IMG/VR virus record: IMGVR_UViG_3300028581_000010
Direction: 5' to 3' (one strand)
DNA from: a virus
Lineage: Duplodnaviria > Caudoviricetes
DNA: 64,000 nt
The notes below the pieces were generated by a model, which saw nothing but the letters and a program-made list of their open reading frames with translations, made no database searches and was not told the DNA's origin. Positions 43,232 through 59,521 of the stretch are shown piece by piece. The translations under genes and the position numbers were made by a program. Numbering within the stretch: the first letter of the stretch is position 1; each line of letters begins with the position of its first letter.

Positions 43232-45085
43232 TTAGTCCTTGAGGCCGAAGCCGACTCCGAATGCCAGTCCTGGGACAGGACTCGGTCCCTTGAGGTCGGA
43301 GTGCCCGCCCTTGTTAACAATGTTGACGAATCTCTTCGCCAAGTTAGTAGAGTTAAGCACATGCATGAAATCCTCGGTATGCTCGGGAACGTCGAGCAAG
43401 CGAACCATGTGTGGCTCGAAGTTGGGTTTCTCGTCGTTTACGAGAATGGAGTCCACCTTATGCTCGGCTAGATGCTTGATTATACTAGAGTTTACTCTTG
43501 TTCCTATAGTGTAGTGCAATACCGGGCGCTCGATAAATTTGCCATAGGCCCTATCCGGGCGCATCTCCTTGGAGTCTTTGCGCGGCTCATATCCTTTTTC
43601 TAAAGCAGAGTAGGAAACGATCTGGTCTGGCAGATAGTCACCTAGGCCATTAGGGTCTGTGATTTTAACGTGGTCGATAGCCGAGCGGGCGATGAGCTCG
43701 AAGTTACGTCTATTGACAAACAGGTTACCGTCGTCGAAGGCTTTCTTCATCGCCTCCATGTAGTACTTTCTACCCTCACCTATACCACGATGAGAGACTA
43801 CTTCACTCGGATCGACGAGCCCTGTGCTTAGCTCCTGTCCTTCCTCGACGGTCTCGCCTTCACGGACCGTAGGTTCTTGGCCAACACCAACATAGTATTC
43901 TTCATCACCTACGTGAATAAAGTGACCGCCTGCGGCAGATGGTTGCACCTGGTGCACAATACCATCCTTATGAGCTAGAGGAGCTCTACCAAGAAATGTC
44001 TTTGGAATGTTAGAGAGCTGGTTAATCATCTTGAAACCAGACACACCGCCCAGCGATGTAGCTGCACCTCCGCCGTGTCTCATCTTCATGGCGTACTCGG
44101 TGAGGGGCTCCGCAACAGCGGTACCTGCGACGAGGCCAATATAGCTGTCCATAGCAGCCAATCCCTTCTCTCTTCTACCTACGCATAGCTGGCACACGGC
44201 ACCGAAGTGCTTATGCTTAGCAGACTCACAGGTCATAGGAGAACGGACCAATACTGTTTTGTGCCCGGCATCTTTCAGCTCTTTTAGTAAAGCAGCTGTT
44301 ACTTCGTTGTTTTTATTGTGTTTACCTATAGCTTTCGCCAGGAAGCACCCAACGGAGTCCTTGTCGTCTGTAGAGTATGCTATGCCGCGGTCGGTACCAC
44401 AGTCATGCTCCTCTACCTTCAAATTCATTAGCGCTCTAGAAAACTGCTTGGAGGCGTAGCCGCCGTCGGCAACACCGATCTTCTTAACAACCTCACCAGC
44501 ACGAGTACCGAAGGAGGTTACCAGATACTCTGGAAGAGATAGCCCTTCTGCGAAGGAGCTCTTAATAGGAATGTCCATGCGGGGCGAGCCATCTGCGTCG
44601 ACGACTATACCCTGAGTTGCTATAGTGGAACGGTACTGCGCTGGAGAACCGCGCGAGCCAGCTAGAATAATCTTGGCTAGCGACTTGTTTGTCTTCAACC
44701 CCTCAGAGAGAAGGTCCTTATCCAGCTTAGACATCAGCCCGTTATACTTATCAAAGATCTTCTGATTCTTAACGTTGCGCGCATCCTTGGAGGCCTCGAC
44801 CGTGTCTTTGTAGTCCTCGAACTCCTTGTAGATCTTGTTCTTGTCGATAGGAGAGATAAGATCCTTTAAACTAATAGATGTACCCTGACGGGTAGCAACC
44901 TCGAAGCCGAGGCGTGTGAGATCGGAAACTACTCTGTTGTATTCCTCTGGAGATGTTTTTGCCAGCTCCTCAAAGATCTTCGCCAGGCCTTTCTTGTCCA
45001 GGACCTGCTCGTCGATTATCTTATGTAGATTAGCGGGTGTAAAAAACTTTAGAAGAATCTTACCGACCGTTGTTACCTCTGCCAT
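43232..45085 (-). CDS. rpoC: RNA polymerase beta' C-terminal half (bridge helix, trigger loop, Zn site II)
   Basis: TTVGK start; AGSRGSPAQ = SGARGSAAQ; PIKSSFAEGL = PITANFREGL; ADGGYASKQF = ANSGYLTRRL; HDCGT, SPMTC, VCQLC; AEPLTEYAMKMRHGGG = GEPGTQLTMRTFHIGG. Confidence 0.93.
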   Translation of the reverse strand: MAEVTTVGKILLKFFTPANLHKIIDEQVLDKKGLAKIFEELAKTSPEEYNRVVSDLTRLGFEVATRQGTSISLKDLISPIDKNKIYKEFEDYKDTVEASKDARNVKNQKIFDKYNGLMSKLDKDLLSEGLKTNKSLAKIILAGSRGSPAQYRSTIATQGIVVDADGSPRMDIPIKSSFAEGLSLPEYLVTSFGTRAGEVVKKIGVADGGYASKQFSRALMNLKVEEHDCGTDRGIAYSTDDKDSVGCFLAKAIGKHNKNNEVTAALLKELKDAGHKTVLVRSPMTCESAKHKHFGAVCQLCVGRREKGLAAMDSYIGLVAGTAVAEPLTEYAMKMRHGGGAATSLGGVSGFKMINQLSNIPKTFLGRAPLAHKDGIVHQVQPSAAGGHFIHVGDEEYYVGVGQEPTVREGETVEEGQELSTGLVDPSEVVSHRGIGEGRKYYMEAMKKAFDDGNLFVNRRNFELIARSAIDHVKITDPNGLGDYLPDQIVSYSALEKGYEPRKDSKEMRPDRAYGKFIERPVLHYTIGTRVNSSIIKHLAEHKVDSILVNDEKPNFEPHMVRLLDVPEHTEDFMHVLNSTNLAKRFVNIVNKGGHSDLKGPSPVPGLAFGVGFGLKD

Positions 45086-45489
45086 TTTGTTTTGTTCAAG
45101 TTGCCCACCAATACGTCGTAAAGGCTGGCTTTCTTCTGAGCTTGCTGTGGACCGGTTACTTTAGTCGTTGTACTTGCCGAGGAGAAGGGCCCGTCAATCT
45201 TAGCCTGTTCCTCTGCCTCGTCTTCCTGGTTCATGCGCGCGAGATCCTTGAAGGAGTTGTCCATCAACTTTCCCTCGTAGTTTTCGTTGCCTTCGTCTCC
45301 CTCGGTGTTGGAGGTAGTGATATCTGCGTCATCAAGAGTGGTGTCGGCGTTTTGCGCTACTTCCTCACCCTCTGCAAGCTTGTCCTTGATGTAGCATACG
45401 TAATCATAGTTGGCATCCTTCGGATTGAAGGAGTCCAAATACGCAGCTAGCTTTTCAAGCCATGGCTTTTCCATATTATTTGGTTCCAT
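45073..45489 (-). CDS. Acidic hypothetical protein with K-x-A motifs
   Basis: LEKLAAY and QKKASLY motifs; lies between the two polymerase genes. Confidence 0.7.
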   Translation of the reverse strand: MEPNNMEKPWLEKLAAYLDSFNPKDANYDYVCYIKDKLAEGEEVAQNADTTLDDADITTSNTEGDEGNENYEGKLMDNSFKDLARMNQEDEAEEQAKIDGPFSSASTTTKVTGPQQAQKKASLYDVLVGNLNKTKWQR

Positions 45490-45543
45490 AATTTACAGTA
45501 ACATCTGACGGATCACGTGGAAGAGCAGACATACCTGTTATTC

Positions 45544-46224
45544 TTACATGGAAGGTTGCGCTGTCGCGGGAGGCTTACCATCGGACATCGCCTGCGGATA
45601 TATGCCGCCACTCATCATGCCTTGCTCCTGTGCCTGTTGCTGTTGCTGCGCGGCAGCCTCGTCCATTTTCTGCTTATTCTGCAGTTGCTGCATCTTGGCG
45701 TTATGCTGGTGGGCCATTTGCTTAACCTTCATTAAAGAAGCAGACGCTGACCCTTTAGAGATTAGGTCCAACAACTCCCTAACAGTTAGCGTGACTTGCG
45801 TATTATCTAACTGATTCTCAGCGTTGACGTTGCCGTCAGTCGCCTCCTGAGGAGGCGCGCTAGGATCGCTTCCTTGCTGGGCTGGGTCTCCACCCTGGGC
45901 CGCTGGGTCGTCCCCACCAATACCTAGCTGCTGGGCAATCTGCTCGAGCTGCGGCTGTTGTTGTTCCGGAGGAAGCTGCATGATCTGCTGGAGAGCAGGC
46001 ATAATCTGTTGCTGTGCCTCTGGAGGCATCTGCTGAACAGCTTGTTCGATTTGGGCCATCAGTGGATTTTCTCCACCTGGAGCACCACCCTGAGGTGGCT
46101 GATCACCAGGCGCTCCGCCTTGAGGTGCTGCGCCTTGAGATGGGTCTTGCTGGACTTGCGGGTTGGGTATGAAGGCCCTCTTGACAATGCTATCGTAATT
46201 CTCTATGAGTTCTGCTATTTTCAT
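45544..46224 (-). CDS. Gln/Pro/Gly-rich low-complexity protein with K-x-A leader
   Basis: MKIAE..VKRAFIP leader, PQGGAP repeats and one folded motif (VTLTVRELLDLISKG). Confidence 0.7.
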   Translation of the reverse strand: MKIAELIENYDSIVKRAFIPNPQVQQDPSQGAAPQGGAPGDQPPQGGAPGGENPLMAQIEQAVQQMPPEAQQQIMPALQQIMQLPPEQQQPQLEQIAQQLGIGGDDPAAQGGDPAQQGSDPSAPPQEATDGNVNAENQLDNTQVTLTVRELLDLISKGSASASLMKVKQMAHQHNAKMQQLQNKQKMDEAAAQQQQQAQEQGMMSGGIYPQAMSDGKPPATAQPSM

Positions 46225-46427
46225 TGGTTCTCTCCGTTTTCTAAATGAATGATTTCTTCCACACGCTGCTTAAGCTCTTTTTTGATGTTTACTAGCTTTC
46301 CTTGTTCTCTTGTGTGTTGCAATGGGTTATTTCCACTCTCTATCTCTAGGAGTGTATCCAGTATACCGGATAGCTCTGCAGCTTTTTCCTGCAAAGTTAA
46401 AGTTTTCCATACGTTTTGATCAAGCAT
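46221..46427 (-). CDS. Small helical hypothetical protein
   Basis: 68-aa ORF, ATGA coupled to the next gene. Confidence 0.6.
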   Translation of the reverse strand: MLDQNVWKTLTLQEKAAELSGILDTLLEIESGNNPLQHTREQGKLVNIKKELKQRVEEIIHLENGENQ

Positions 46428-46456
46428 AACAGTTATTTCCTCTGGGATAAAGTTTA

Positions 46457-49400
46457 TTATTTGATCTCCACTCTATCACCAATATCAAGTTTGCCAAGGA
46501 AAAAGTCTCTAACTACTTCCTGCTCACTGGAATACTTCACTGCCTTGTTCTTCTTATCCTCGAAGCTAGACTGGAACAGTCCTGTGGCAGACTCGTTGGA
46601 TGGTGTGAAGATCGGCGTGAAGTTTCTATGGTAGATTAGGTTCTTCTCAGGCAGCAGCTTCTCCTTGATCTCTTCCTTGGCTTCGTCGGAAGCTGGTAGT
46701 TGAATGTTTAGCTGGTCACCGTCGGAGTCAGCTCCATAACCCTTAAAGACCAGCGGATTCATCTTCAACGAGAAGTCCTTCGGGTCGATGTTGGGTTTTA
46801 GGTAGAATCCCTGGAAGTTGTACTTACTCAGCTGGGGATCGCGCGTAATAATTCCTGGGCGGTCGAGCCGTTCCTGCTCGAGGGCAGCTGCTGCGAGTTC
46901 GTGGCGTTTCTCTACATATTCTCTAGCCTTGATTGCCGGTATACCCTGTCTAACCAGGCGACGTATGATGAATGGTGAAAAGATATTCCATGCAATGTTC
47001 TGTGGTATGCTTGCCTCGTTGAGAGCTAGGTTAGCGTCTGGCACAAGAACACCACGACCAACAAGATCGATTGGCTTGTTAACTACCTTGGCCTGGAACA
47101 TGGATTCCTTGGCGCTTCCGCCGCGGAGACCGAGGGCGCTAGCTAGTAGTCCCTTGAAGCCCTTCTCCTTGCTCTTAACCGACACTGGGTCACCTAGTCC
47201 GTAAACAGCTTTGATGCCTTCGTATAGTTTCTTCTTGGCCTGCGCCTCGTGCTCGGGAGAGATATCCTCACCTTTGTTTTCACGCAGCGAGCCGTTTACT
47301 AACATTAGATCTTTATACAGCTCGTTGATGTCCGCCGACATGACCTGGTCGCCTTGAACCAGAATGGGACGGAACTGCGCAGGTATGACCGGCACCTTGG
47401 TGAGGAGCAGGTCCGATATTGCTATTTTATGCTCCTTTAGCATCTTTAGAAAGGCGTGCACCTTAAGCGCGTCATCGCGTCCGGACTTGTTGCCCTTCTT
47501 GATGAAGCCTTTGGTCTCCTCTAGCTTCTGGTCGATGTCCATACCGCGGAGTTCCTTCTCCAGCTCACCGGAGGCAAGCTTCTCCTCAAACTTAACCTTG
47601 GTCAGCTTGAGCATCTTGCGAATGTAATCTTCGGAGATGGGGTTCGGCATCGGTACTGCCAGGTCGATATGGTTGTAGTTGTCTCCATAGATACCTGTCG
47701 TAGACGCATCAAACAGCCCACCGTCCTCGGCAATGAGGTCGTCTTTCTTCAGCTTGTAGGTCAGCGGCTTCTTAATAGGACCGGCAGACATTGCAGTGAT
47801 GTCCTTGTCTGTTTGTGGAAAGATATTGAACAGGTTGCCGTCCTGTACCATGTTAACACCTGCTCCCTTGAGGTGACCGACGAACTTGTTAAAGATGAAT
47901 GGTACCTTGGGTGGAGGTGTAGGGTAACCCAACTTCAGAGCAGTCCAGTACTCGTCGTTCTTCGTGGCACGAATGGTAGCGATATCTCTGAGAACGGCCT
48001 TGGCGTCGTTGGATAGGGCCACCGTGGTAGCCAGGTTTCCTAGACGCTTACTTTTCTCGTCAGTGCCAGACTTGGACGGTTGCTGGTTAATGTCATACGT
48101 AGTGGCCGCCGAGCGCGAGGAAATTTTATCCTCGGCGATGTGGTGGAGCCTAGTATAGTACGCGGGGCCGACCATGACGTCGATATGCTTGCCTGACTGT
48201 GGGTCATATAGCTTTTCCGTGTCGCTGATGCCGTGCTTGTCCAGCTCGGCAATAACCTTTTCTACCGAGGAGCCCTCTGTGAACTGGTTCATGTTCAGCG
48301 GGTGCCCCAGCTTCTGAGCTACCTTACCAAGGGCCAGGCTGTTGATAAGCCCTGGAGCCACACGGGAGGTAACGCTCATCGAGTTTAGAATAACATCCAC
48401 AGGCTTGCCATCCTCGCCCTGAGGCATCTCAGTGTTAGGAATGATGCGTACCACACCCTTAGCTCCGTAAGCGTTGGAATTACCCGTCCAATGCGCCTTG
48501 CCGTTGCGTCGAACATAAAATGTATGATGCTTTGGCAAAGTCAGACAAAAAACAGGACCGGCATAATCTATAAGAGCCTCATGTTGAGCTTTTTGGGACC
48601 TTGTATGGCTATGGTTGATCTCTGGATAAAACTTAGAGCAATAAATAGAAATCGCGTAGTTAACGGCCGTCTGCTTGGTAGCTTTACCGCAAATAGTAAA
48701 TTCTTTGCCTACATATCCGCGTGGCGTATATGTTGAGCTCTTACCTAAGTGCACCACAAGCCTTTGAAAGCTGTCCCGTAGCAGCTCAGACGACGTAAAG
48801 TAGAACATACATGTCTTGCCGACATGCCCGTCACCCAGCATAGCCCAGTCAAAAATAGTCTGCAAATGGCTGTGGTCATACTTAAAAAGAAAGTCTGGTA
48901 GCTGCTTGGATTTAAAGCCTGAGCCAAACTGTTTAAAATGTGTGTATAAAGCTTTACTATATATACGAAAGCCGTGTGGCCCACGGATGTAATGCATGGC
49001 ATGTTTGTCAAATAACTCTGTAATTTTCTGCACGCAGCTGTACTTACTCTGAGCTATATCTATACCAAATGAACCGGATTTGACATCATTTACCAAGTTA
49101 CCCTCCGAGACGAAGAGCCCTACTAGGGCAAAATACGCTTCGGCCGGAAGTGTCATACTCGGAGATGTGCGCACTCCCTTAGAGCCGTTGGTGTATTCCG
49201 CCCCCGGCAAAGTAATGCTGTCTATCTTAATGCCCGCTATAGGGCTGCCGTTTAAAACAAGCTTGTAATTTTTTCCCACGAGTTTTTCAGCAGGAATGAG
49301 CTCGTACTTTCCGTTGAACTTTTTGCCAAGCCAGCCCTTGCGTCGGTTAGCTACTAGTTTGTGGTTGAGTGTCACACACATATCCACGCTACTGGTGGAC

Positions 49401-50536
49401 AAGCTATACATTTTTCCGGCGTGCAGATACACAGGAATGGCCTCAACAGGCTCTAAAGAGATGTTTCCTGTTTCGAGCTCTCTACTGTACGCACGCGTAC
49501 CTATCGGAATATCTGCATAAAGCCTCCAGCCGTACTCTGTAAGTACCTCATGATCTGTAGTTAGGCACAGCTTATCAGCCTGCCCCATCGGGCGGGTTGT
49601 TTTGATTGTAACCGTTACGAGTTTACCTGTGTTACTAACATCAACGACCTCGCCGTCGTGCTCGTACTCCCAATTGGAGGAGATGTCGGAGAATGCGTTG
49701 CGCAGTACTCTGGATAGTTTTCCAAGCTGAAGGTCCAGAGACTTAATAGTCTTAGGTTGGAAAGCGAGAATAACAGGATCACCATTCTTAACCTTGGTAC
49801 CTGTCTTAACCACACCGGCACTGTCGATGGTATCCAGCTGGTCGTTGAGATACTTATTAGGAAAGAGTGAGACGTATCTATCTTTATCGGTTTCAATACC
49901 TCTGGCGATCTCCAACCGTATTGGTACGAGCTGTTCGGCCTCAAGCTTCTTAGCGGCATCCTCAGAGATAACCAAGGCGTCCTCGAAGTTATATGAGCGA
50001 AAAGGCATGACTGCAGTCTTGAGGTTCATACCTAAGGCTAGCTTGCCTGCCTTGTCTGAGTAGTTGGAGGTGGCCATCAGCTCACCCTTGGAGACCTTGT
50101 CACCCTTCTTGACGACTGGCGTGTTGTGCAGGTAGCTCTCGCGCCCCACCAGGTAGTTATTATACAATTCGTGATGGACGTTCTCTCCGTCGTCAGTCTT
50201 TACCGTAATACCTTCTGGGTCTACCTTGGTTACAGTTCCGCCATCCTTGGCGTGTAGCGCCGCGGTCTCTCTGCCGTATATGGAGTTGAAGGAGCTCTTG
50301 GAGTGCGTGTCGGACGACTGCACTAGGGGAACCTCGCGGTTGATCAGCGTCATGGCCTGCGTTGAGGACTTCTCTCCAATGAGTACGCGGGCGCCGGATA
50401 CGGAGCTGACTCCGGGAATAAGATTTGTGACCGGCGAGAAGAAGGTGGCTGTCGAGGGAATAGAGTAGTCTGCCTTAGTGGAGGCGGGTACCTTGGTCAA
50501 CTTTCCGTTGATCAACATGAATTTCATTTTTTTCAT
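46457..50536 (-). CDS. rpoBC: RNA polymerase beta C-terminal part fused to beta' N-terminal part (both double-psi barrels), intein-containing
   Basis: Beta motifs: SPVTNLIP..RVLIG, LALGMNL, YNFEDAL, ADKL|SNAYGAKG, DVILNSMSVTSR, HHIAEDKISSR. Beta' motifs: GPIKKP, GGLFD, HIDL, VPVIPAQFRP, VDLVGRGV-like, TRDPQL and catalytic YGADSDGDQ. Confidence 0.95.
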   Translation of the reverse strand: MKKMKFMLINGKLTKVPASTKADYSIPSTATFFSPVTNLIPGVSSVSGARVLIGEKSSTQAMTLINREVPLVQSSDTHSKSSFNSIYGRETAALHAKDGGTVTKVDPEGITVKTDDGENVHHELYNNYLVGRESYLHNTPVVKKGDKVSKGELMATSNYSDKAGKLALGMNLKTAVMPFRSYNFEDALVISEDAAKKLEAEQLVPIRLEIARGIETDKDRYVSLFPNKYLNDQLDTIDSAGVVKTGTKVKNGDPVILAFQPKTIKSLDLQLGKLSRVLRNAFSDISSNWEYEHDGEVVDVSNTGKLVTVTIKTTRPMGQADKLCLTTDHEVLTEYGWRLYADIPIGTRAYSRELETGNISLEPVEAIPVYLHAGKMYSLSTSSVDMCVTLNHKLVANRRKGWLGKKFNGKYELIPAEKLVGKNYKLVLNGSPIAGIKIDSITLPGAEYTNGSKGVRTSPSMTLPAEAYFALVGLFVSEGNLVNDVKSGSFGIDIAQSKYSCVQKITELFDKHAMHYIRGPHGFRIYSKALYTHFKQFGSGFKSKQLPDFLFKYDHSHLQTIFDWAMLGDGHVGKTCMFYFTSSELLRDSFQRLVVHLGKSSTYTPRGYVGKEFTICGKATKQTAVNYAISIYCSKFYPEINHSHTRSQKAQHEALIDYAGPVFCLTLPKHHTFYVRRNGKAHWTGNSNAYGAKGVVRIIPNTEMPQGEDGKPVDVILNSMSVTSRVAPGLINSLALGKVAQKLGHPLNMNQFTEGSSVEKVIAELDKHGISDTEKLYDPQSGKHIDVMVGPAYYTRLHHIAEDKISSRSAATTYDINQQPSKSGTDEKSKRLGNLATTVALSNDAKAVLRDIATIRATKNDEYWTALKLGYPTPPPKVPFIFNKFVGHLKGAGVNMVQDGNLFNIFPQTDKDITAMSAGPIKKPLTYKLKKDDLIAEDGGLFDASTTGIYGDNYNHIDLAVPMPNPISEDYIRKMLKLTKVKFEEKLASGELEKELRGMDIDQKLEETKGFIKKGNKSGRDDALKVHAFLKMLKEHKIAISDLLLTKVPVIPAQFRPILVQGDQVMSADINELYKDLMLVNGSLRENKGEDISPEHEAQAKKKLYEGIKAVYGLGDPVSVKSKEKGFKGLLASALGLRGGSAKESMFQAKVVNKPIDLVGRGVLVPDANLALNEASIPQNIAWNIFSPFIIRRLVRQGIPAIKAREYVEKRHELAAAALEQERLDRPGIITRDPQLSKYNFQGFYLKPNIDPKDFSLKMNPLVFKGYGADSDGDQLNIQLPASDEAKEEIKEKLLPEKNLIYHRNFTPIFTPSNESATGLFQSSFEDKKNKAVKYSSEQEVVRDFFLGKLDIGDRVEIK
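48479..49567 (-). mobile_element. 363-aa intein with LAGLIDADG-type homing endonuclease
   Basis: Block A CLTTDHEVLT, block B VTLNHKL, endonuclease motifs LVGLFVSEGN and WAMLGDGH, block F VFCLTLPKHHTFYV, terminal TGN followed by extein Ser. Removal restores ADKL-SNAYGAKGVV (= GDKMAGRHGNKGVI). Confidence 0.92.
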
Positions 50537-50540
50537 CGTA

Positions 50541-50894
50541 TTAAACTTCCTGTCCGTCAGTGGTCTCGGCGTACATGGCGTCCAGCTCCTCGACCACGTC
50601 GTCTACGAAGCGTACTCCGCAGCGGTCCCATAGAAAGTCAGCTAGCCCGTCGGAGATCTCGTCAACGCTATCGTTACCGATATCCCAGCAGCAGCAGTGC
50701 AGTAGCTCGTCGATCAGAGTGGCCAGGAGCTCCTTGCCCTCCTCACGGTTGTCTATCTGTACGGCCTTGCCCTTCGTATCAGGATGGTCGGTGAGACCAC
50801 GGGCGTCCTTGAGTTTGCCTACCTTGAATCTGTAGCGCTTGCCGCGGATGCTTACAGTCTTGATCTGTTTCAGGCGTTCCATCGTTTTAGACAT
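50541..50894 (-). CDS. Small zincin-like protein with a degenerate HExxH motif (DELLH)
   Basis: Likely start ATG 50894 (MSKTMER). RYRFKV...GLTD...VQID...LATLIDELLHC...VDEIS.GLADF follows the small phage metallopeptidase pattern. Confidence 0.55.
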   Translation of the reverse strand: MSKTMERLKQIKTVSIRGKRYRFKVGKLKDARGLTDHPDTKGKAVQIDNREEGKELLATLIDELLHCCCWDIGNDSVDEISDGLADFLWDRCGVRFVDDVVEELDAMYAETTDGQEV

Positions 50895-50901
50895 ATGGGA
50901 C

Positions 50902-51176: not shown

Positions 51177-51845
51177 ATGAGTGATCTCCGTAAAACCATC
51201 CTTGGAATGACGGGCTCCAGGGGAAAACAAGTCGTAATCAGGCCTCTCCGTCAGGCCTACAAAGTACCAATAGAGGAGAATGATGATACTGCTCTCTCTA
51301 TTGTGTGTATGGCATTCGCTCAGCTTCCTGAGCGCTACCAGGTGGTCTTGCACTGTCGCCTCGTGCAGGGCTTGACCATGGCGCAGACCGGTTGTCTCAT
51401 TAATACGAGTCGTACTCGTGTTATGCAGCTGGAGTATCAGGCGCTACGTATGCTCCGCGACAAGTATCATATTCAGGAAAGACTCTTCGCTCGCGATGTT
51501 CATGCCGTTCTTGCCGAGCCGTCTTATGACGTTGCTGGCATTATTGATGCGCGCAACGTCCAGGTCTGGTACAGAGATTTCCTGGCGTTGGAACGTGCGG
51601 ACAGAGCAGCTGCCTACAAAAAAGAGCTGGCGGCGATTCGGCGTCAGGACATTGCACGGAGGAAGCTCAAGGAACAGAAGCGTGCTCGGGCGGAAGCTGT
51701 GAGGCGTCAGGCAGAGGAATACAACGCCAGCCTCACAGTGGTCTACGAGAAAGGCAAGCCCGTGGATCAGGAGGCACAGGACCGCAGGGATGACGTAAAG
51801 CACGCTACGAACGCTGCTCTGCGCAGCTGGGTTCAAGGCGTCTGA
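51177..51845 (+). CDS. Sigma70 region-4 HTH protein with a long charged helix
   Basis: LPERYQVVLHCRLVQGLTMAQTGCLINTSRTRVMQLEYQALRMLR matches region 4; no region 2; strong AGGAGGT SD. Confidence 0.8.
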   Translation: MSDLRKTILGMTGSRGKQVVIRPLRQAYKVPIEENDDTALSIVCMAFAQLPERYQVVLHCRLVQGLTMAQTGCLINTSRTRVMQLEYQALRMLRDKYHIQERLFARDVHAVLAEPSYDVAGIIDARNVQVWYRDFLALERADRAAAYKKELAAIRRQDIARRKLKEQKRARAEAVRRQAEEYNASLTVVYEKGKPVDQEAQDRRDDVKHATNAALRSWVQGV

Positions 51846-51852
51846 CGCTAAA

Positions 51853-51888
51853 GAGGGAGTGCGGGCTTCGGTCCGTGCTCTCTTTTTT
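51853..51888 (+). terminator. Intrinsic terminator with a cUUCGg tetraloop
   Basis: GAGGGAGUGCGGGC-UUCG-GUCCGUGCUCUC stem with several G-U pairs, then UUUUUU. Confidence 0.85.
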
Positions 51889-51950
51889 AGCTATTGGGTT
51901 CTGAATATTATGTTATTTGAACAATTTGCCCACCTAACTCTCATTTTCTC

Positions 51951-51978
51951 TTGACTATTCCTGGCCACGCTGTAAAAC
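51951..51978 (+). promoter_or_regulatory. Possible promoter TTGACT-N16-TAAAAC
   Basis: Directly after the terminator; ATG 51987 lies 8 nt after the -10 box. Confidence 0.45.
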
Positions 51979-51986
51979 CATACATT

Positions 51987-54077
51987 ATGCCAGGTTCATT
52001 TCCAGTACCCATGGAAGGAGACGACGGTGACATTGCAACATACTGCTCTAATGTCGCCGTCCACTATCCTATTCATCTGGATCCGGTTAAGAACGCATGG
52101 GACGCCTACGAGAAACAGCACGGTGACTGCCCTACTCAGGCGATGATGGCTCCCTTCTTCGCCGCCTCGGAGTACGTCACTCAGGAACCAGGTCATGTCT
52201 CCGCCATAGGCAAGTACGGAATGAACTGGCTTGCTCCAAACGACTACGTTGCAAACTGGGGGTCGCTGGACGAGATGTCCAAGAAGGTGTTCAAGGAGCT
52301 GCTGCTCAAGGACTCCTCTCGCTCCAATCGCTGCTACTACGGGTTGAAGGAGCACGACTCTCTTCCCGAGCACCTGCTTCTCCTCACCGGGGCCGAGGTA
52401 TGGAACATGTTTCCAGATCACGCCATCGACATGGTCACCTCCAATCTCAAGGATGGCTACTACTACTCTCGCAACAAAGTGAGATGCCGCTCTCTTGACG
52501 CCAGGACGGCCATGGAAGCCGTCGACGTGTACGAGCGCACCTACGACCCTGCCATACTGTTCAAAGACCTGGACGCGGTCGTTCTGCTCGTAGACAGCCC
52601 CGCTGAGATGCACGACCTGGACGAGGACGTCAACGTGACGCGCGACACTCACCAGAAGTTCTATCACAACGTGGTAGCCTTCATGAAGAAGCAGATCGTC
52701 AAGAGCAAGGTCTACTCTCTCAAGTACTCGCACGAGGTAGCCGTCACCTCCATTCGCAACAAGAAGTTCATGCCTCACACGCACATGGTAGCCTGGTATC
52801 CCAAGGGCACGGAGTTTCCCATAGGAGAGCTTCAGGCGGACATGGAGCTGAAGTACCCAGGCTACAAACTGTCCATGGAGACCAACTACGGCAAGAACGG
52901 CGTCCATACCTCCTACTCCACGGTAAAGGACTTCTGCAAGTACATGTTCAAGGTATCCACGCTGGCCAAGACATATCGGCGGGAGTTCTCCTACGACGAC
53001 GCCAGAGAGTTCAACATCGCTACCGTGCAGTGCCTTCGCGCACTGGTGGATCTCGCTACGGGCACGGGAGAAAAGAAGAAACTATTTCCAAGAACAAACT
53101 GCATCTACGTGCCCAAGAAGAGCGACGGAGTGGGGGCAAAGTCGAAATACGTACATCCGAAGTTGCAAAAGTTGCGGAAACGTCGTAAAATAATCGAAAG
53201 GAATGCTGCAGTCGTCGAGCTGCCTCCGAACAATACTTCTACAAATGACACAACAAGACCTTCAATTCAGCCTGATCAAACTAGCGGAGCAGTCAGGATT
53301 AGCCCCGGAGACCGATGCGTTTCTGGAGGGAATGGCCAAGGAAGCCGACTTACTGCTGGAGCAACATCAGCTGCAAAAGAGAGCCTTCTTCAACAACGCG
53401 ATACGGGCGGTAGTCAAAGAAGCCCATATTCAAGGGATATCCTCGACGTCGCCAGAGTGCTTGGACTTGATCCAAAAACTCTCGGAGATGCAGGAGCCCG
53501 AAGAGCTCATACAGGCGCTCCAGAAGAACGCCCAAGACTTCCAGTCTGCCCTATCCGAGCAGATGATCAAGGAGGGCTACGACCAGGCGTTTGTGGATGG
53601 CATGATCAAGGAAGCGGGGTTGTTCTCTGCCGTAGGGGCGCTGCCTGCTGTGAAAGCCGTGGCCAGAGGCTTCGGCTCCGAGGGAAGAGCGATGCTGGGC
53701 GCGGCTACGTCGGGAGCGCTCACTCGCCCCATAGGAAAAGACTCAACCCACGGCTTCTCGCAATGGTGGAAGGGAGTCAAGGGAGATGCGCGCGGGCTAG
53801 CCAACGAGGGCCTGCCCGCGGCAGCCCGTGTACCCGGCACGGCCGACGCTGGCGAGGCAGTTGCAAAATATCTAGGCGAGATGGACAGCGGGCTCGCGGG
53901 CCTTGCAAAGGACAGTCCGCACGTGCAGGCCATTACACCCATGTCAATGGCGAGGCGCAACACACATATGAAGTGGGACGAAGGCAACATAGGCCCACAC
54001 TCTGTAAAAGCCGACAGCGCGCAGTCTTCGATGCTCGGCGCTGGACAGGCGGCCGAGCGTGCCGCGGCGGAAGCTGA
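51987..54077 (+). CDS. HUH-superfamily (rolling-circle Rep-like) endonuclease; folded part ends near 53160 and the frame continues over the next gene
   Basis: SHEV...FMPHTHMVAW (HUH motif II) and VKDFCKYMFK (YxxK motif III) in Rep_1-like order and spacing. The C-terminal ~280 codons look like an alternative-frame reading. Confidence 0.65.
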   Translation: MPGSFPVPMEGDDGDIATYCSNVAVHYPIHLDPVKNAWDAYEKQHGDCPTQAMMAPFFAASEYVTQEPGHVSAIGKYGMNWLAPNDYVANWGSLDEMSKKVFKELLLKDSSRSNRCYYGLKEHDSLPEHLLLLTGAEVWNMFPDHAIDMVTSNLKDGYYYSRNKVRCRSLDARTAMEAVDVYERTYDPAILFKDLDAVVLLVDSPAEMHDLDEDVNVTRDTHQKFYHNVVAFMKKQIVKSKVYSLKYSHEVAVTSIRNKKFMPHTHMVAWYPKGTEFPIGELQADMELKYPGYKLSMETNYGKNGVHTSYSTVKDFCKYMFKVSTLAKTYRREFSYDDAREFNIATVQCLRALVDLATGTGEKKKLFPRTNCIYVPKKSDGVGAKSKYVHPKLQKLRKRRKIIERNAAVVELPPNNTSTNDTTRPSIQPDQTSGAVRISPGDRCVSGGNGQGSRLTAGATSAAKESLLQQRDTGGSQRSPYSRDILDVARVLGLDPKTLGDAGARRAHTGAPEERPRLPVCPIRADDQGGLRPGVCGWHDQGSGVVLCRRGAACCESRGQRLRLRGKSDAGRGYVGSAHSPHRKRLNPRLLAMVEGSQGRCARASQRGPARGSPCTRHGRRWRGSCKISRRDGQRARGPCKGQSARAGHYTHVNGEAQHTYEVGRRQHRPTLCKSRQRAVFDARRWTGGRACRGGS
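53163..53191 (+). promoter_or_regulatory. Promoter TTGCAA-N17-TAAAAT inside the HUH ORF
   Basis: Read directly; lies upstream of ATG 53245. Confidence 0.7.
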
Positions 54078-54990
54078 GGCTAGGGCACTCGCTGCAAAAT
54101 GGTATCCGCAGTTTAAGCGCGACCCAGTCGGCACGCACGGTGACCCTCTATATAGGCAGGAGTTGGAGGCGCTGTTCGCGAAGCATCAAGGACGCATCGA
54201 TAAGGGATTCTTCGGCGCAGGAGGCAAAACCGGGCTTACCGCCCAACTCGGAGACCTGCGTAACTCTTATTTAAACAATGGCAACCCGGACATGACTCGG
54301 GACCTGCTCAAGCAACTCGCTTCTCCCGCCGGCGCAAAGATGGAGGCTCTGTCTCCGGGGCTAGCTATTCCAGGCGCCCACGCACAGATAGCTGACCCAC
54401 GCGCCTACGCAGCTGCTGCAGCCGGTAGGGGAGTTGGCTCTAATAGGCACCCGGTATCCGGCTTTTTAGGAGGCACAGCCGCTAGCATTCCTGCAGGTAT
54501 GCTTGGTGCCGCAGCCGGCGGAGCTTTACTGGGACCTCCTGGTGCTTTCGTAGGTGGGCTACTCGGTGGAGGCGCGGGTTGGAAGCTCGGCAAAGGTGTC
54601 GCTGGTCGCCTAGGCGTAGGTAAGACTATGCTTGGAGCAGGCGCCCTGGGTGCCGGTGGTATGTATCTTGGAGGCAAGGCAGTTATGGGTCAGAGTGACG
54701 CCAAGGATGCGCAGGGCCTTCCCGTAGATCGAAACCGGGCCGTTCCGTTTATGAAGAACAACTGGGCCGGTGCAGCAGGTGGCGCACTACTTGCGTCAAC
54801 TATTGCAAGAGAGCTCGGACTGGACGCAGGAGCGATGTCTTGGATACTGCCGCTTCTAGGTGGTGTAGCAGGATACAACTATCTACCACAACTCATGAAC
54901 AAGTGGCAGGACCCGAATGGCTACGGAGTAAATGCCGTACCTGAGGGCAATACACAGATGACGGCGCAGACTCCGTTTAAGTTAATGTAA
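53245..54990 (+). CDS. Putative internal head / ejection protein with shared modules and long glycine zippers
   Basis: Likely start MTQQDLQFSLIKLAEQSGL; FLEGMAKEA, QKRAFF and FVDGMIKEAG modules; GMLGAAAGGALLGPPGAFVGGLLGGGAG zipper. Confidence 0.8.
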   Translation: MTQQDLQFSLIKLAEQSGLAPETDAFLEGMAKEADLLLEQHQLQKRAFFNNAIRAVVKEAHIQGISSTSPECLDLIQKLSEMQEPEELIQALQKNAQDFQSALSEQMIKEGYDQAFVDGMIKEAGLFSAVGALPAVKAVARGFGSEGRAMLGAATSGALTRPIGKDSTHGFSQWWKGVKGDARGLANEGLPAAARVPGTADAGEAVAKYLGEMDSGLAGLAKDSPHVQAITPMSMARRNTHMKWDEGNIGPHSVKADSAQSSMLGAGQAAERAAAEAEARALAAKWYPQFKRDPVGTHGDPLYRQELEALFAKHQGRIDKGFFGAGGKTGLTAQLGDLRNSYLNNGNPDMTRDLLKQLASPAGAKMEALSPGLAIPGAHAQIADPRAYAAAAAGRGVGSNRHPVSGFLGGTAASIPAGMLGAAAGGALLGPPGAFVGGLLGGGAGWKLGKGVAGRLGVGKTMLGAGALGAGGMYLGGKAVMGQSDAKDAQGLPVDRNRAVPFMKNNWAGAAGGALLASTIARELGLDAGAMSWILPLLGGVAGYNYLPQLMNKWQDPNGYGVNAVPEGNTQMTAQTPFKLM

Positions 54991-55751
54991 TGCAACCTAT
55001 ACACCTACCTGCATTTTACATGGGAGTATCCGACCAACTGTTTAAGGGAAGCCCGAGCGACTCTATGTCTGGTCATGGAAATACCAACAGCTCCATACTA
55101 CCTAACATTCCCTCCCAGGCTAAATGGAAGTATGCCAAAGGAGAGGACTTCTTTCGTGTTACGGACGGGCATCATGTCTATAACTTCGGAATGGCTGGCA
55201 AGTTTTCTGATGAGGACAAGCTAGTGGACAAGCTGGAGGATGTACCTACTCCGGAGTTTAACAAAGGCGCGGTTGAGGAAGGGACCGCACAAGTACACCG
55301 GGCCTCCCCAGATAATATCTACCTTACGCTTGCGGACGGCAAATTGAACCCGACCTTCGAGCTAAAACACCACGACGGCAAGCAGTGGAAGTACGCTCCT
55401 TCAAAGAAGTTTATCGATAAGCTCAAAAAGCAGACCGCCGGCAGTGTGCCCACCATTCTTGATCCTGACTCGCTGATTCGTGGTGCTACAGGAATGCTCA
55501 AGAAAAGCGTTTTTGACCTATCTTCAGCTACCGAGCTCCTTGCACACGGCGTACCTAATGCGCTAGGCAGCCTGCTTGACTTCCGACTCGCTCATCCAGC
55601 GCTCGCTGCCACAGGCGCGGTCGTAGGCGCAAACACGCTGTTGCCTAAGTTATTCGGTAAAAAGCCAAATATGGGCACTGGGTTGCTGGCACCGCTGGCC
55701 GCCTCCACTGCCGTAGGTGCCGTGGCCCCTGCCATTAAAAGCATGTTATGA
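54990..55751 (+). CDS. Protein with a beta-rich domain and C-terminal hydrophobic Gly/Ala helices
   Basis: Coupled start; AFYMGVSDQLFKGS leader; ALAATGAVVGA and GLLAPLAASTAVGAV segments. Confidence 0.7.
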   Translation: MQPIHLPAFYMGVSDQLFKGSPSDSMSGHGNTNSSILPNIPSQAKWKYAKGEDFFRVTDGHHVYNFGMAGKFSDEDKLVDKLEDVPTPEFNKGAVEEGTAQVHRASPDNIYLTLADGKLNPTFELKHHDGKQWKYAPSKKFIDKLKKQTAGSVPTILDPDSLIRGATGMLKKSVFDLSSATELLAHGVPNALGSLLDFRLAHPALAATGAVVGANTLLPKLFGKKPNMGTGLLAPLAASTAVGAVAPAIKSML

Positions 55752-56113
55752 TACGGACTCCAGACAACTTCTATAAGCCGCGCTCGTTGGACACGATGCT
55801 GGATATGCGCAATGCTATTCAGCCAGAGCATCTGATGCACATGATCGCACGTGATCCTGGTCTGCCTAACGAAAGAAAGCAGCCACTGCTCACCATGCTG
55901 AGTACGCCAGAAGTATTTGACCATCTACTAGTAGGTGCGGCTGGCGCAGCGTTGGCCTTGGCGGTAGCAAAGTTCGCTGAGTTGGACAAGGCTCCCAAGG
56001 TTCTTGTCGGTTTGGCTGGCTTTGGAATCGGAAATGTGGTATACAATATGTTAAAGGAAAATAAATTCACAAGCTTCGACCCGCACACGGGCATAGCAAC
56101 ACTACACACATAA
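55748..56113 (+). CDS. Small two-helix membrane-like protein
   Basis: LLVGAAGAALALAVAKF and VLVGLAGFGIGNVV segments. Confidence 0.7.
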   Translation: MIRTPDNFYKPRSLDTMLDMRNAIQPEHLMHMIARDPGLPNERKQPLLTMLSTPEVFDHLLVGAAGAALALAVAKFAELDKAPKVLVGLAGFGIGNVVYNMLKENKFTSFDPHTGIATLHT

Positions 56114-56114
56114 A

Positions 56115-56492
56115 ATGGAAAGCACTCTAACAAAATACGCACAAGCAATTAAAGCCGAGCTGGCCCTGGAGTTAGCCAAACAGGGATCGACATTGGCGCA
56201 ATTCGACCAGGAGCTGGCCTCGGTTAACACCGGCGAAGGTGTATTGAAGATCGCGGCCGCCGAGACAAGCATGTTGCATGACGCCTTTCGTGGTGGGCTG
56301 AATGCGGGCGCGTCCATTCCGGACTTGGCCCTGAAGTTATCGCTGGCCGGAGGCGCAGCCGCAGGGCTAACTGCGGACGAGATGGATAACTCTGTAAACA
56401 ACCTAAATAAGTCTTTACAAAGCGAGCGCGAAAAGATTAAGTTGGTGCAGCGCCTAACAGCTAACCTAAAGAGAGAACATGGACTTAGATAA
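56115..56492 (+). CDS. Small helical protein with K-x-A motifs and a Gly/Ala helix
   Basis: LTKYAQ, LKIAAA, LSLAGGAAAGL, then a coiled coil. Confidence 0.7.
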   Translation: MESTLTKYAQAIKAELALELAKQGSTLAQFDQELASVNTGEGVLKIAAAETSMLHDAFRGGLNAGASIPDLALKLSLAGGAAAGLTADEMDNSVNNLNKSLQSEREKIKLVQRLTANLKREHGLR

Positions 56493-56835
56493 AGATTACG
56501 CTTCGTTTGGAACAGTATACACAGATAAGACCCTGAGAAGGGACCGCAATATTCGTGCAGAGGTCACGAACAAAGAATTCGATCCTAATAAAGTGATCGA
56601 CGCCTATGAGCAGTCACGCGGTATTAAGCCACGCCCGACTGTCGACAAGAATAACTTCGAGTTCAAGAGTATCGTACTCGATCCCGAGCAAGATAAAGAC
56701 CGCGACATGCTGGACATGTTGCTGAACGACGACAAGTATGTAATCTCGCTCTATAAAGATAACTGGACTCACCACGGGTCCTACCGCGTGTTCATTATTT
56801 ACGGAAAGCGCAAAGAGAAAGAAACTTCACAATGA
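56479..56835 (+). CDS. Hypothetical protein
   Basis: 118-aa ORF coupled to both neighbours. Confidence 0.65.
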   Translation: MDLDKDYASFGTVYTDKTLRRDRNIRAEVTNKEFDPNKVIDAYEQSRGIKPRPTVDKNNFEFKSIVLDPEQDKDRDMLDMLLNDDKYVISLYKDNWTHHGSYRVFIIYGKRKEKETSQ

Positions 56836-57695
56836 AAAACGGCACAGATATACCACTAACCCCAGACGAGGCCTACCAGGCCTCAAAGATGTTTGGCAGC
56901 AGCCTGTTCAGCGCTATTCAACTCACTAAGGAGTTGGAGAAATACCGCGATGCCCGGCAAACAAAGCGCGACCCGCACGACAACATTCTTCGAATTCCTA
57001 TTCCAAAGGATTTAATGCAGCCTACCAAGCTCGGCGCGTGGGTAGGGCAGGCCACCGGCAAAACCTTCCAGGACTTTATTAAAAACAGGTTGGCTAAGAA
57101 ACAAGTCAGCGATGGCATAGCTAAGTCAAAAAATCTTTTTCTCACATTAGCTCCTCGTGGTGGTGCTGTCGTTAAAAAGGCAGATGAATCTATGGACCCA
57201 GGCGTGATCGGTAGAGCGCTGCGGTTCAACAAGCATCCAGTGCGCATGCTTGTAGGAAGCCAATCAGGCTTCAAAGACGCACAACGCGATTATCATGAGC
57301 AGGAGAGACAACAGATCGCGAGAGAGTTAATGGAGGCACAGAAAGAGTATATCTCAACGCTCCAGAGGATTAAAATGGGTGAGGCAACTCCTTACGTTGA
57401 CGCTTTTTGCAACGGAATAGCAGAGCACGTAGTTTTTGAAAAAGAAGCTGCTGACACGGCCGAAGATGTTAATATCTCCGACCATGCTGTTCGTCGGATG
57501 CTGGGAGATGTTTTCAACGTCGCCAAGAAACCATTGCGCCCAGCCACCGATGCCGCGGCTTCGGGATTGCTTTCCACTGGAGTAAGTGCCGCCTATTTGA
57601 CCTATCTGCTACGCAAGAAAACACGCGAAGAGCCCCCTGCTTATCTGCGCGAAGCTATGCCTACGCAGGTTGAACTGGTTCCTTACGGCGACTAA
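56832..57695 (+). CDS. Putative internal head protein
   Basis: VKKAD and FCNGIAEHVVFEKEAA motifs; hydrophobic AASGLLSTGVSAAYLTYLL segment. Confidence 0.7.
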   Translation: MKNGTDIPLTPDEAYQASKMFGSSLFSAIQLTKELEKYRDARQTKRDPHDNILRIPIPKDLMQPTKLGAWVGQATGKTFQDFIKNRLAKKQVSDGIAKSKNLFLTLAPRGGAVVKKADESMDPGVIGRALRFNKHPVRMLVGSQSGFKDAQRDYHEQERQQIARELMEAQKEYISTLQRIKMGEATPYVDAFCNGIAEHVVFEKEAADTAEDVNISDHAVRRMLGDVFNVAKKPLRPATDAAASGLLSTGVSAAYLTYLLRKKTREEPPAYLREAMPTQVELVPYGD

Positions 57696-57696
57696 G

Positions 57697-58467
57697 ATGC
57701 ACATCGACTGGAATGCTTTATCAGACGGGGTTGGTAGTGAATTGGCTAAAAGTGCCAATCTGGAAGCAGCTACGCCTCCAGCCACAGGGCGGGCAGCGTG
57801 GCAGCAAGGCGCACGTAACGTTGTTGAGGGGGCCATACAGCACCCATTGGTACGGCCGCTTGCACAGCATCCATTTACGGCCGCACCACGAGCGGTCTTT
57901 AACAACGTAACTAAGCCAGCTCTGGACTTTGTTAGCGGCGGGGCTATGACCGGGCTACAAGACAAGTACAATGCCGCCGGAAAGGCTATATCCGCTGTAG
58001 GTGACGTTGCAGGCCAGGTGCTCCCTATAGGGCTTGCGGCCGGCGGCGCAGCTCTTCTAGGCGGGCTAGGAGGAGGAAAGGGCCGCTCTACTCCCGAGCA
58101 ACCGTCAACTGGAGGGTACGCACCAGGCAGACGTACGCTACTCACTCGTGGGCACGGCGATGTTAACTCGCTAGTTAACCCTATGACCTCCTGGGCCCCT
58201 CAAGGTGGAGGTCTTAAACTTGCAGGCGTGATGGACTCCGTTGGCTGGGCCGCACGAAACCGTGTAGCCAACATGGCACTCAACGCAGCTACTGGCCTGC
58301 CGTTAAATACAAATCCACTGCACGCGGCGGCGGAGCCTCCAGCCAAGCGTAACGAGGACCTGGCCAAGGAAGTGGAGCTTGTCACAAAGTATCCAGAGAT
58401 CAAGGCAATGCTGGAGCAGCCGGAAACAAAGGAGCACTTGTTAGACATCCTTGAAGGAAAGGCATAA
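57697..58467 (+). CDS. Putative internal head protein, Gly/Ala-rich
   Basis: Likely start ATG 57697 (MHIDWNALSDGVGSELAKSAN); GLAAGGAALLGGLGGG; LKLAG. Confidence 0.7.
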   Translation: MHIDWNALSDGVGSELAKSANLEAATPPATGRAAWQQGARNVVEGAIQHPLVRPLAQHPFTAAPRAVFNNVTKPALDFVSGGAMTGLQDKYNAAGKAISAVGDVAGQVLPIGLAAGGAALLGGLGGGKGRSTPEQPSTGGYAPGRRTLLTRGHGDVNSLVNPMTSWAPQGGGLKLAGVMDSVGWAARNRVANMALNAATGLPLNTNPLHAAAEPPAKRNEDLAKEVELVTKYPEIKAMLEQPETKEHLLDILEGKA

Positions 58468-58474
58468 GTTCTGC

Positions 58475-58503
58475 TTGCAAAATCAACGACTACCGGTTAT
58501 GGT
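58475..58503 (+). promoter_or_regulatory. Promoter TTGCAA-N17-TATGGT
   Basis: Read directly; upstream of 58516 and the RpoB N-terminal fragment; ACCGGT precedes the -10 box. Confidence 0.6.
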
Positions 58504-58515
58504 GAGACTTGATTT

Positions 58516-58728
58516 ATGGCAGCAAAACAAGTATACATTCCGAAGATTAATTTGACAGGTACCTACATAGAAGAACTAGGCACTGCTACCGACAAAATAT
58601 GCTATCCTGGAAGTACATTCAGCGTAGAGATTTGTTTGGAAGATTTTGAAGATAAAGAAGAATACCACACGGCTTGGATCGCTATAACAAAGGCGGCCCA
58701 GAAGAAGTTGGAAAAGAATAACAGCTAA
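58516..58728 (+). CDS. Hypothetical protein
   Basis: 70-aa ORF with TAATG coupling to the RpoB fragment. Confidence 0.65.
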   Translation: MAAKQVYIPKINLTGTYIEELGTATDKICYPGSTFSVEICLEDFEDKEEYHTAWIAITKAAQKKLEKNNS

Positions 58729-59390
58729 TGAAACCTCCCGCGCAAACAAGATCTTTCTTCGACCCTATTAGGCTGAGAGAGCTCGTGCTTAAGAATGCGG
58801 TGGACGCCTTTCAGAACAAGCTGAACAAAATAGAGACGACAGACTTCAAGCTGTCTGCCCATAGTCTAAAGATAGACTCCACGCCTATATCTATCTCCGA
58901 CCAGAAGAAAGCTATTCTGGAGAAAAAAGACATTACCGTGCCCCTCAAGGGCACGATTGATTTGATTCACAAGGCGTCTGGTAACGTTGTGGAGTCTAAG
59001 AAGCTGACTATTGCACAGATTCCATACATCACCGAGCGCAACACCGCAATATATAACGGTTCGGAGTACGAGAGTATCAATCAGATGCGCTTGCTGCCTG
59101 GTATCTATGCGCGTATTAGACAGGATGGTATCGCCGAAGCTCACATCAACCCAGCTCCTCGCACAGGTGTAGCGGGGCGCATTCTCTTTCTACCAGACAG
59201 GCAGATCTTTGTGTTGATGATTCAGAACACCCAGGTGCACCTCTATAGCATTCTTCATGATCTAGGTATCTCGGACAAGGTCATCCTCGAGGCTTGGGGC
59301 AATGAGATCTATAATAAGAATCGTGCTGGCTACTCCAGCGAGGCTATCGATAAACTGTTCCTAAAACTCTTCGGTCCCGAAGAAGAATAA
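58728..59390 (+). CDS. rpoB: RNA polymerase beta N-terminal fragment (stand-alone gene)
   Basis: KDITVPLKGTIDL = tY..PLrvk.rL; IAQIPYITERNTAIYNGSEYESINQMRLLPGIY = .geiPlMT..GTFiINGtERVivsQL.RSPGVy. Confidence 0.85.
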   Translation: MKPPAQTRSFFDPIRLRELVLKNAVDAFQNKLNKIETTDFKLSAHSLKIDSTPISISDQKKAILEKKDITVPLKGTIDLIHKASGNVVESKKLTIAQIPYITERNTAIYNGSEYESINQMRLLPGIYARIRQDGIAEAHINPAPRTGVAGRILFLPDRQIFVLMIQNTQVHLYSILHDLGISDKVILEAWGNEIYNKNRAGYSSEAIDKLFLKLFGPEEE

Positions 59391-59499: not shown

Positions 59500-59521
59500 A
59501 AACAAACAACAATAAATAACT

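Follow-up and report, generated by a model that had tools for sequence, protein, structure and literature searches.

A bacterial-type phage RNA polymerase with a fused β–β′ chain, encoded in a lake-water phage by four genes, two of them with inteins

The 64,000-nucleotide stretch of viral DNA analyzed here (IMG/VR record IMGVR_UViG_3300028581_000010, hereafter the window) carries genes that most likely encode a single bacterial-type multisubunit RNA polymerase (RNAP) core of an uncultured, myovirus-like phage from lake water with a genome of ~215 kb. The central component of this enzyme is a chain in which the C-terminal part of β is joined to the N-terminal part of β′. Both double-psi barrels are located on this chain and, consequently, the active center is built largely within one polypeptide. 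The enzyme is encoded by four genes, not three, and two protein-splicing events would leave four chains: an N-terminal β piece (β-N) of 220 amino acids (aa), a middle β piece (β-mid) of ~228 aa, the fusion of 996 aa and the C-terminal half of β′ (β′-C) of 617 aa. This four-gene, two-intein layout is a sub-variant of a larger family of fused polymerases, members of which occur in cultured phages. Taking all evidence together, we estimate at about 0.72 the probability that the window encodes a virion-carried, single-set, α-less, bacterial-type core enzyme made up of four chains after two splicing events.

Layout of the polymerase genes

The polymerase pieces are distributed over ~20 kb and both strands. 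A sequence-only reading of the window had assigned RpoB and RpoC motifs to three genes. All three are real and lie where they had been placed, but the count does not hold, as a fourth gene, encoding β-mid, is found outside the window. The polymerase features are as follows (L011 is an ENA contig introduced below).

46457..50536 (−): fusion gene (β C-half, intein, β′ N-half), 1359 aa; 996 aa minus the intein
49568..50536 (−): β C-half, extein 1 (residues 1–323), ending in ...ADKL with the first catalytic Lys
48479..49567 (−): intein, 363 aa (residues 324–686), with a LAGLIDADG-type endonuclease core
47822..48478 (−): β C-half, extein 2 (residues 687–905), starting with SNAYGAKG (second catalytic Lys) and ending at the β C-terminus (...HLKGAGVNM)
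46457..47821 (−): β′ N-half (residues ~906–1359), with N-terminal strand, clamp helices and double-psi barrel
46715–46735 (−): GADSDGD, residues 1268–1274 of the fusion protein
43232..45085 (−): β′ C-half, 617 aa, with bridge helix, second zinc site and trigger loop
58728..59390 (+): β N-piece, 220 aa, covering β1/protrusion start and the beginning of the lobe
64797–66512 in window-equivalent positions (L011:13130–14845) (−): β-mid, 571 aa including an intein, past the window end

The fused chain

In the 1359-aa product, Pfam matches were obtained to RNA_pol_Rpb2_6 (E = 6.8e-46), Rpb1_2 (E = 1.6e-13) and Rpb1_1 (E = 1.7e-8). When phmmer was run against the PDB, residues 8–290 and 687–896 aligned with bacterial β (E. 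coli ~649–1342; E ~1e-40 to 2e-40) and residues 967–1358 with the N-terminal part of β′ (E = 7e-31). These Pfam and PDB matches bear out the earlier claim that a C-terminal part of β is joined to an N-terminal part of β′ that includes GADSDGD. Extein 1 aligns with E. coli β ~648–905 and from 1048 onward; for extein 2, the PDB alignment pairs residues 688–891 with β 968–1178. The chain starts at the equivalent of residue ~482 of gp206, the fused protein of Salmonella phage Arash, and ends ~85 residues past the β′ barrel motif. In P0006, an intein-free orthologue of 995 aa with 69% identity to the window fusion protein, β ends at about residue 541–545 and β′ starts within a few residues, residues 617–959 matching Salmonella β′ 173–513.

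The catalytic lysines of β (E. coli K1065/K1073 motif) flank the intein (...ADK-L / S-NAYGAKG...). In the Mg-binding motif of β′, GADSDGD, the three Asp residues are invariant and Gly takes the place of Asn at the first position. Consistent with the location of both double-psi barrels on one chain, as had been proposed, K322, K330, D906, D908 and D910 (P0006 numbering) show no variation among 74 family members, at identities down to 34%. The four-Cys zinc ribbon near the N-terminus of β′ is absent: by direct reading there is no Cys between GGLFD and HI.L, and the same is true of the family consensus. To judge from these sequences, the first β′ zinc ribbon is deleted in the fused chain.

An AlphaFold2 model based on 74 family sequences is confident throughout, junction included (predicted local distance difference test 89.5; predicted template modeling score 0.82). 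Residues 1–541 of the P0006 model superpose on bacterial and plastid β to the last residues (VIA Z 33–38; root-mean-square deviation ~3 Å). Together with the PDB matches at E ~1e-40, this agrees with the previous description of the sequence as bacterial-like. Among the matches listed, the best PDB and BFVD neighbors are ordinary β and β′ chains, and no fused chain with both halves is found among the top matches in either database.

The other pieces of β and β′

An alignment of the separate products to bacterial β and β′ had been suggested as a check; once carried out, it gave matches to PDB chains for the fusion, β′-C and β-N alike. The β′-C protein contains Pfam Rpb1_5 and Rpb1_3 and aligns in the PDB with E. 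coli β′ from 571 to 955 and further into the C-terminal region (E = 2e-37), an alignment that spans the bridge helix and trigger loop. It starts at the equivalent of E. coli β′ ~568, its residue 23 being aligned with residue 9 of cyanobacterial RpoC2, and has a second zinc site (C229, C286, C298, C301), the trigger-loop motif MKMRHGGG at residues 333–340 and no SI3-type insertion. Its gene is located 1.4 kb downstream of the fusion gene. No Pfam match was obtained for β-N, which matches β ~78–224 of cyanobacterial and other solved bacterial RNAPs in the PDB (E = 1.8e-6) and residues 36–143 of Arash gp206 (E = 6e-14).

Residues ~143–482 of Arash gp206 have no counterpart inside the window: tblastn and a hidden Markov model of residues 130–500 of the fused proteins of Arash and Vibrio phage D69, run against all six frames, detected no β-mid there. 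In G001, a related 182-kb IMG/VR contig, the same region forms a separate 230-aa gene with the Pfam Rpb2_3 fork domain. The gene missing from the window is found ~800 bp past its end on L011, which is 99.99% identical to window positions 51668–64000 and continues beyond them. Its 571-aa product contains a 343-aa LAGLIDADG-type intein directly after the GEGGIG fork-loop motif, and β-mid is the predicted carrier of the fork/rifampicin-pocket region. Two open reading frames (ORFs) near β-N (59522–59893 and 59913–60764) were considered as polymerase pieces and rejected, as they encode Ig/Fn3-like structural proteins.

Inteins and other mobile elements

The intein of the fusion gene extends from C324 to N686, is followed by S687 and is inserted between the two catalytic lysines. 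It is precisely absent from P0006 (borders ADKL/C...GN/S, with slashes at the insertion points). Its N-terminal HINT block matches that of the mycobacterial RecA/PI-MtuI intein (E = 5e-5), a weak LAGLIDADG_3 match is present, and tblastn matches were obtained to inteins of Lak phages and mycobacteriophages. The element thus combines Cys1, a C-terminal Asn followed by Ser, a HINT block and clean absence from an orthologue. The β-mid intein is homologous to it over the full length (22% identity, E = 9e-15). From these motifs, splicing of both inteins is plausible.

A group I intron (RF00028, 100.7 bits, E = 1e-26; L020:2033–2313 (+)) splits the fused polymerase gene of Vibrio phage D181 and is followed by a homing endonuclease gene. 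The intron is also present in phage D148 and absent from D69. It is situated within the conserved ...FFNS/NHPGRLT/MAGK..., ~45 residues from the point at which the chain of the window starts, and the D181 record labels the two exons as separate hypothetical proteins. Mobile elements demonstrably target these polymerase genes. An Rfam scan of the whole window returned nothing at the gathering threshold. The extra cuts in β would stem from mobile-element traffic, that is from inteins, group I introns and homing endonucleases; this causal role is speculative and echoes the intron-mobility hypothesis for phage AR9 (PMC7598289).

Two further observations concern L011. At L011:12865–12891 (−), a 62-codon ORF downstream of β-mid ends in LSSKIDIPEA and a stop codon, the same ten residues as β-mid itself; this duplicated and recoded β-mid 3′ end beside an endonuclease remnant looks like a homing-endonuclease scar. 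At L011:17770–20586 (+), ~7.8 kb past the window end, a gene encodes 938 aa with weak ribonucleotide-reductase matches and a strong LAGLIDADG_3 match (E = 1.6e-15), and would be the third intein-bearing gene of the phage.

Size and phylogeny of the family

Fusion proteins of ~995 aa form at least 217 clusters at 90% identity, encoded on contigs of 170–290 kb. Stand-alone β-mid accounts for 163 clusters on contigs of the same sizes, and stand-alone β-N of ~220 aa for at least 160, on the same 188–211-kb contigs. The fusion clade was encountered in lake, marine and enteric settings. An exhaustive HMMER scan of 1.8 billion representatives at 50% identity yielded 1468 matches at E ≤ 1e-30, the best 150 of which all span β-C and β′-N; with this number of representatives, and with the best 150 checked as fusions, the chain is a useful marker for poorly known large phages.

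In a module census of 154 representatives, a whole β plus β′-N was the prevailing form (120), followed by β-C plus β′-N only (23) and by β-mid plus β-C plus β′-N (11, some perhaps truncated ORFs). In none of the 154 was β′-C attached to the fused chain. The pattern seen in Arash, with β continuous into β′, a cut after the barrel and a separate β′-C, was found in the window and in all 154 representatives. The window does not have a whole β on the fused chain, β-N and β-mid being separate genes. Many family members, at 1.8–2.9 kb, match in several separate stretches, a sign that inteins are frequent. Two metagenomic split-type β-C plus β′-N chains, P0323 (1818 aa) and P0361 (1264 aa), have C-terminal extensions of ~800 and ~270 aa, respectively, that are not β′-C.

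A maximum-likelihood tree of family sequences, with three bacterial sequences as outgroups, places the window in a clade of 29 members, all of them split forms, with a support of 100 in the Shimodaira–Hasegawa-like approximate likelihood ratio test. The Arash/D69 clade and another large clade are made up of whole-β forms. Cuts are lacking in the outgroup and in two of the three clades, and by parsimony the split form is therefore derived.

Cultured relatives and genomic context

The fusion is restricted to four of 50,697 phage records, namely Salmonella phage Arash and the Vibrio phages D69, D148 and D181. They belong to the same family as the window (31–32% identity; tblastn E = 2.6e-93 and 1e-57). 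The β-to-β′ junction and the cut in β′ after the barrel are common to the window, Arash and D69. In the latter two, however, the fused chain (1525 and 1527 aa) includes the whole β (~1010 aa), whereas β of the window is divided over three genes and holds two inteins. Several records in phage collections (OR844998, OR846602, CAKLQH020000005, AFYI01000006 and others) contain ordinary host rpoB–rpoC operons with rplKAJL upstream; such records are bacterial contigs filed as phages and can mislead searches for phage polymerases.

The two polymerase proteins of Arash, gp206 and gp216, are labeled 'beta' and 'beta'', respectively, in a paper that makes no mention of a fusion (PMC10585845, OQ632216). 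In purified virions, gp206 gave the most spectra of all proteins (3516 spectra, 100% coverage) and gp216 was among the top five; the authors point out that abundant enzymes may be carried over into virion preparations (PMC10585845). The genes that come after β′-C in the window, on its strand, encode homologues of the virion proteins gp218, gp220 and gp222 of Arash and keep their order. In the window, as in Arash and D69, the polymerase genes lie within the head/structural block and are collinear with it, and in the two cultured phages the fusion gene is two genes past the portal position.

One polymerase set each was found in G001, Arash and D69. The α subunit (PF01000) was not found in G001 (93% complete), Arash or D69, and was found in 14 of 14 control genomes. 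Arash and D69 encode region-2 sigma factors, of which the window has no homologue; neither a region-2 nor a region-4 sigma factor was detected in G001, the near relative of the window. Three further features accompany the polymerase genes.

45073..46427 (−): three small ORFs, of 133/138, 226 and 68 aa, in the interval from the fusion gene to β′-C
58516–58728 (+): 70-aa ORF overlapping the start of β-N
51177..51845 (+): 222-aa protein with a sigma-70 region-4-type helix-turn-helix (HTH), divergent, ~640 bp upstream of the fusion gene

The small ORFs are kept in the same positions in G001 at 41–51% identity (41–47% for the 45073–46427 set). Those between the fusion gene and β′-C have no Pfam or PHROG match, the 70-aa ORF likewise lacks a family match, and these small conserved ORFs are possible candidates for accessory subunits. 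The 222-aa protein matches Pfam Sigma70_r4 (E = 3.8e-8, above cut-off), with its HTH near the N-terminus (residues 46–94), an odd placement for a sigma factor. It was not found in G001, so that its link to the polymerase is weak.

A Pfam search with ten neighboring window proteins gave no matches. Between positions 52000 and 56000 of the window, G+C content is 0.555–0.558 vs ~0.49–0.51 elsewhere, and the AT skew reverses near 51 kb, where the coding strand switches. At 62984–63296 (+), two adjacent direct repeats of ~155 bp with ~93% identity (blastn) lie over the 3′ end of a Cys-rich 469-aa gene and the sequence downstream.

Proposed role of the enzyme and alternative explanations

As has been suggested for gp206 and gp216 of Arash, the enzyme may travel in the virion and be injected with the task of starting transcription. 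We hold this packaging and early-transcription role, which is based on homology and synteny with Arash, with moderate confidence. Being the only polymerase set, the enzyme probably serves later transcription too. The covalent tether between β and β′ would make up for the absent α-dimer assembly platform, although replacement of the α platform by a covalent link is speculative. More generally, and tentatively, with the odds rather against it, the fused chain might be the hallmark of a very large, almost unstudied clade of 180–290-kb phages that inject an α-less, bacterial-type RNAP in which the tether replaces the α dimer. If true, this would constitute an assembly logic for multisubunit polymerases that has not been described before, with the tether freeing the rest of β for separately encoded modules, as in the sub-clade of the window.

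Several points weigh against a virion-carried, α-less enzyme of four spliced chains. The search for α and ω was made with Pfam PF01000 only, in G001, Arash and D69; a divergent platform protein is possible and could be among the small conserved ORFs. The case for packaging comes from one isolate at ~30% identity, whose authors allow for carry-over, and for the window phage itself expression, packaging and activity are predicted from homology. Arash and D69 encode sigma factors and no region-2 sigma factor was found in G001. Both inteins end in Gly-Asn, not His-Asn, and their splicing competence is assumed. Finally, the three clades meet in an unresolved trichotomy at the base of the family, and the derived position of the split form follows from parsimony, not from a tested rooting.

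The most serious competing explanation, although we regard it as unlikely, is that the same enzyme is made after infection for middle or late genes only, while the host polymerase, perhaps redirected by phage sigma-like factors, reads the early genes. This would fit the contamination of virion preparations by abundant enzymes noted by the Arash authors, the sigma factors of Arash and D69, which could act on the host enzyme, and the region-4-like HTH protein that adjoins the polymerase operon of the window. On the other hand, by spectral count gp206 ranks first among the proteins of Arash virions, at 100% coverage, and the collinear placement of the genes within the head/structural block of all three genomes, two genes past the portal position for the fusion gene of Arash and D69, argues for a product that belongs to the virion.

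The sequence-only reading had proposed that the layout could be an intermediate on the route from cellular multisubunit enzymes to single-chain, two-barrel polymerases such as YonO, crAss gp66 and P23-45 gp96. Both barrels are indeed on one chain whose sequence is clearly bacterial-like, but this proposal was not upheld and now appears very improbable. The β′ C-half is separate in all 154 representatives, and the lineage of the window gained cuts instead of losing them. Among the PDB and BFVD matches listed, at most 50–60 per search, there is no single-chain enzyme of the YonO or crAss type, the best being ordinary β and β′. The junction itself is trivial, being formed between adjacent rpoB and rpoC, and rpoB–rpoC fusion arose independently in Helicobacter and Wolbachia.

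A still less credible explanation is that the polymerase genes are decaying, as mobile-element leftovers that no longer encode an enzyme. The two inteins with non-canonical Gly-Asn ends, the putative endonuclease scar and the dispersal of the pieces over ~20 kb and both strands could be read in this way. Yet the four pieces are intact ORFs of constant length, without frameshifts or stops, represented by 160–217 clusters each on the same large contigs; the catalytic residues are invariant; and the fusion-gene stretch was found, with identical sequence, in at least nine lake-water metagenome runs. That the fusion or the splits are artefacts of assembly or gene calling, a concern raised at the outset and one that any metagenomic contig invites, can be practically dismissed, as the identical 1359-aa ORF is present in the JGI, ENA and Logan assemblies, contigs from three lake-water runs other than the likely source read through the junction and through both borders of the intein without a single difference or alternative join, and the same junction occurs in independently sequenced cultured phages.

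Novelty and significance

An earlier description of the partition in a characterized phage group had been named as a point that would remove its novelty. The partition is undescribed in the literature searched: no description of a phage β–β′N fusion was found in the open-access papers covered. The fusion as such, however, is present in cultured phages, including Arash gp206 and Vibrio phage D69, under the labels 'beta' or 'hypothetical'; family proteins are already known from public databases, and virion proteomics is available for one member. The two cultured hosts, Salmonella and Vibrio, make structure and mechanism directly approachable. Testable questions include how the core assembles without α, whether it still uses sigma, and by what route it gets into and out of the capsid. 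The sub-clade of the window, in which the enzyme takes four genes and requires two rounds of protein splicing, offers a natural experiment on the tolerance of β to cuts.

Comparison with known polymerases

RNAPs of the phiKZ/AR9 type have β-like and β′-like pieces on separate chains, in two paralogous sets, virion and non-virion (PMC7598289, PMC7824862). The window enzyme resembles them in being α-less, in having β divided over several genes (two or three in those phages) and in the cut of β′ just past the barrel, which in phiKZ-like phages is at the same general site (PMC7598289). A virion-packaged form exists in phiKZ/AR9-type phages and is likewise proposed for the window enzyme. In contrast to their two sets, one set was found in G001, Arash and D69, with β and β′ joined. 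The window sequence is also nearer to bacterial enzymes (PDB E ~1e-40) than to the PHROGs 'RNA polymerase beta subunit' (E ~1e-16), which we take to be of the phiKZ/jumbo-phage type. No phiKZ-like phage is among the tblastn matches listed for the fusion protein (30 of 60 records). Membership of the phiKZ/AR9 group was rejected on the basis of the single set, the joined halves and the much closer bacterial sequence.

Yersinia phage YerA41, Ralstonia phage RP13 and Rhizobium phage RHph_TM30 (Kleczkowskaviridae) encode β/β′ homologues at E values of 1e-14 to 1e-27. YerA41 and RP13 cut β′ past the barrel, as does the window, but none of the three fuses β to β′: in YerA41, β′N, β′C and β are three genes, and RHph_TM30 has a whole β′. 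The mReC metagenomic phages were selected for separate subunits of ≥800 aa with the motif NADxDGD (PMC7481178). With GADSDGD, the window polymerase would fail this motif filter.

The cut in β′ is within ~15–25 residues of the RpoC1/RpoC2 cut of cyanobacteria, a split of β′ that plastids have too. In cyanobacteria, RpoC1 is a free subunit, not fused to β, and RpoC2 has a large insertion; this insertion is absent from β′-C of the window. Natural rpoB–rpoC fusions are known from Helicobacter and Wolbachia, with whole β and whole β′ on a chain of ~2900 aa and with α still in use. The window shares with them the gene order, rpoB then rpoC, and the direct joining of the β C-terminus to the β′ N-terminus. 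Full-length β and β′ do not occur together on one chain in the window, however, where β′ is cut past the barrel and β is trimmed or cut, and α was not detected in the relatives.

YonO, crAss-like gp66 and P23-45 gp96 are single chains that each form a complete enzyme and can barely be aligned with cellular subunits, and crAss-like gp66 and P23-45 gp96 are delivered with the virion. As in these enzymes, both catalytic barrels of the window polymerase are on one polypeptide. Its fused chain differs in needing three further chains, as β′-C supplies the bridge helix and trigger loop and two further genes the fork and lobe, so that it is not a complete enzyme in one polypeptide, and in aligning readily with bacterial β and β′. 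The partition of the multisubunit RNAP core is usually thought to be fixed, exceptions being phiKZ-like phages, cyanobacteria, some archaea and Helicobacter; to these, the present family adds a partition that has both barrels on one chain and is still easily alignable to bacterial enzymes.

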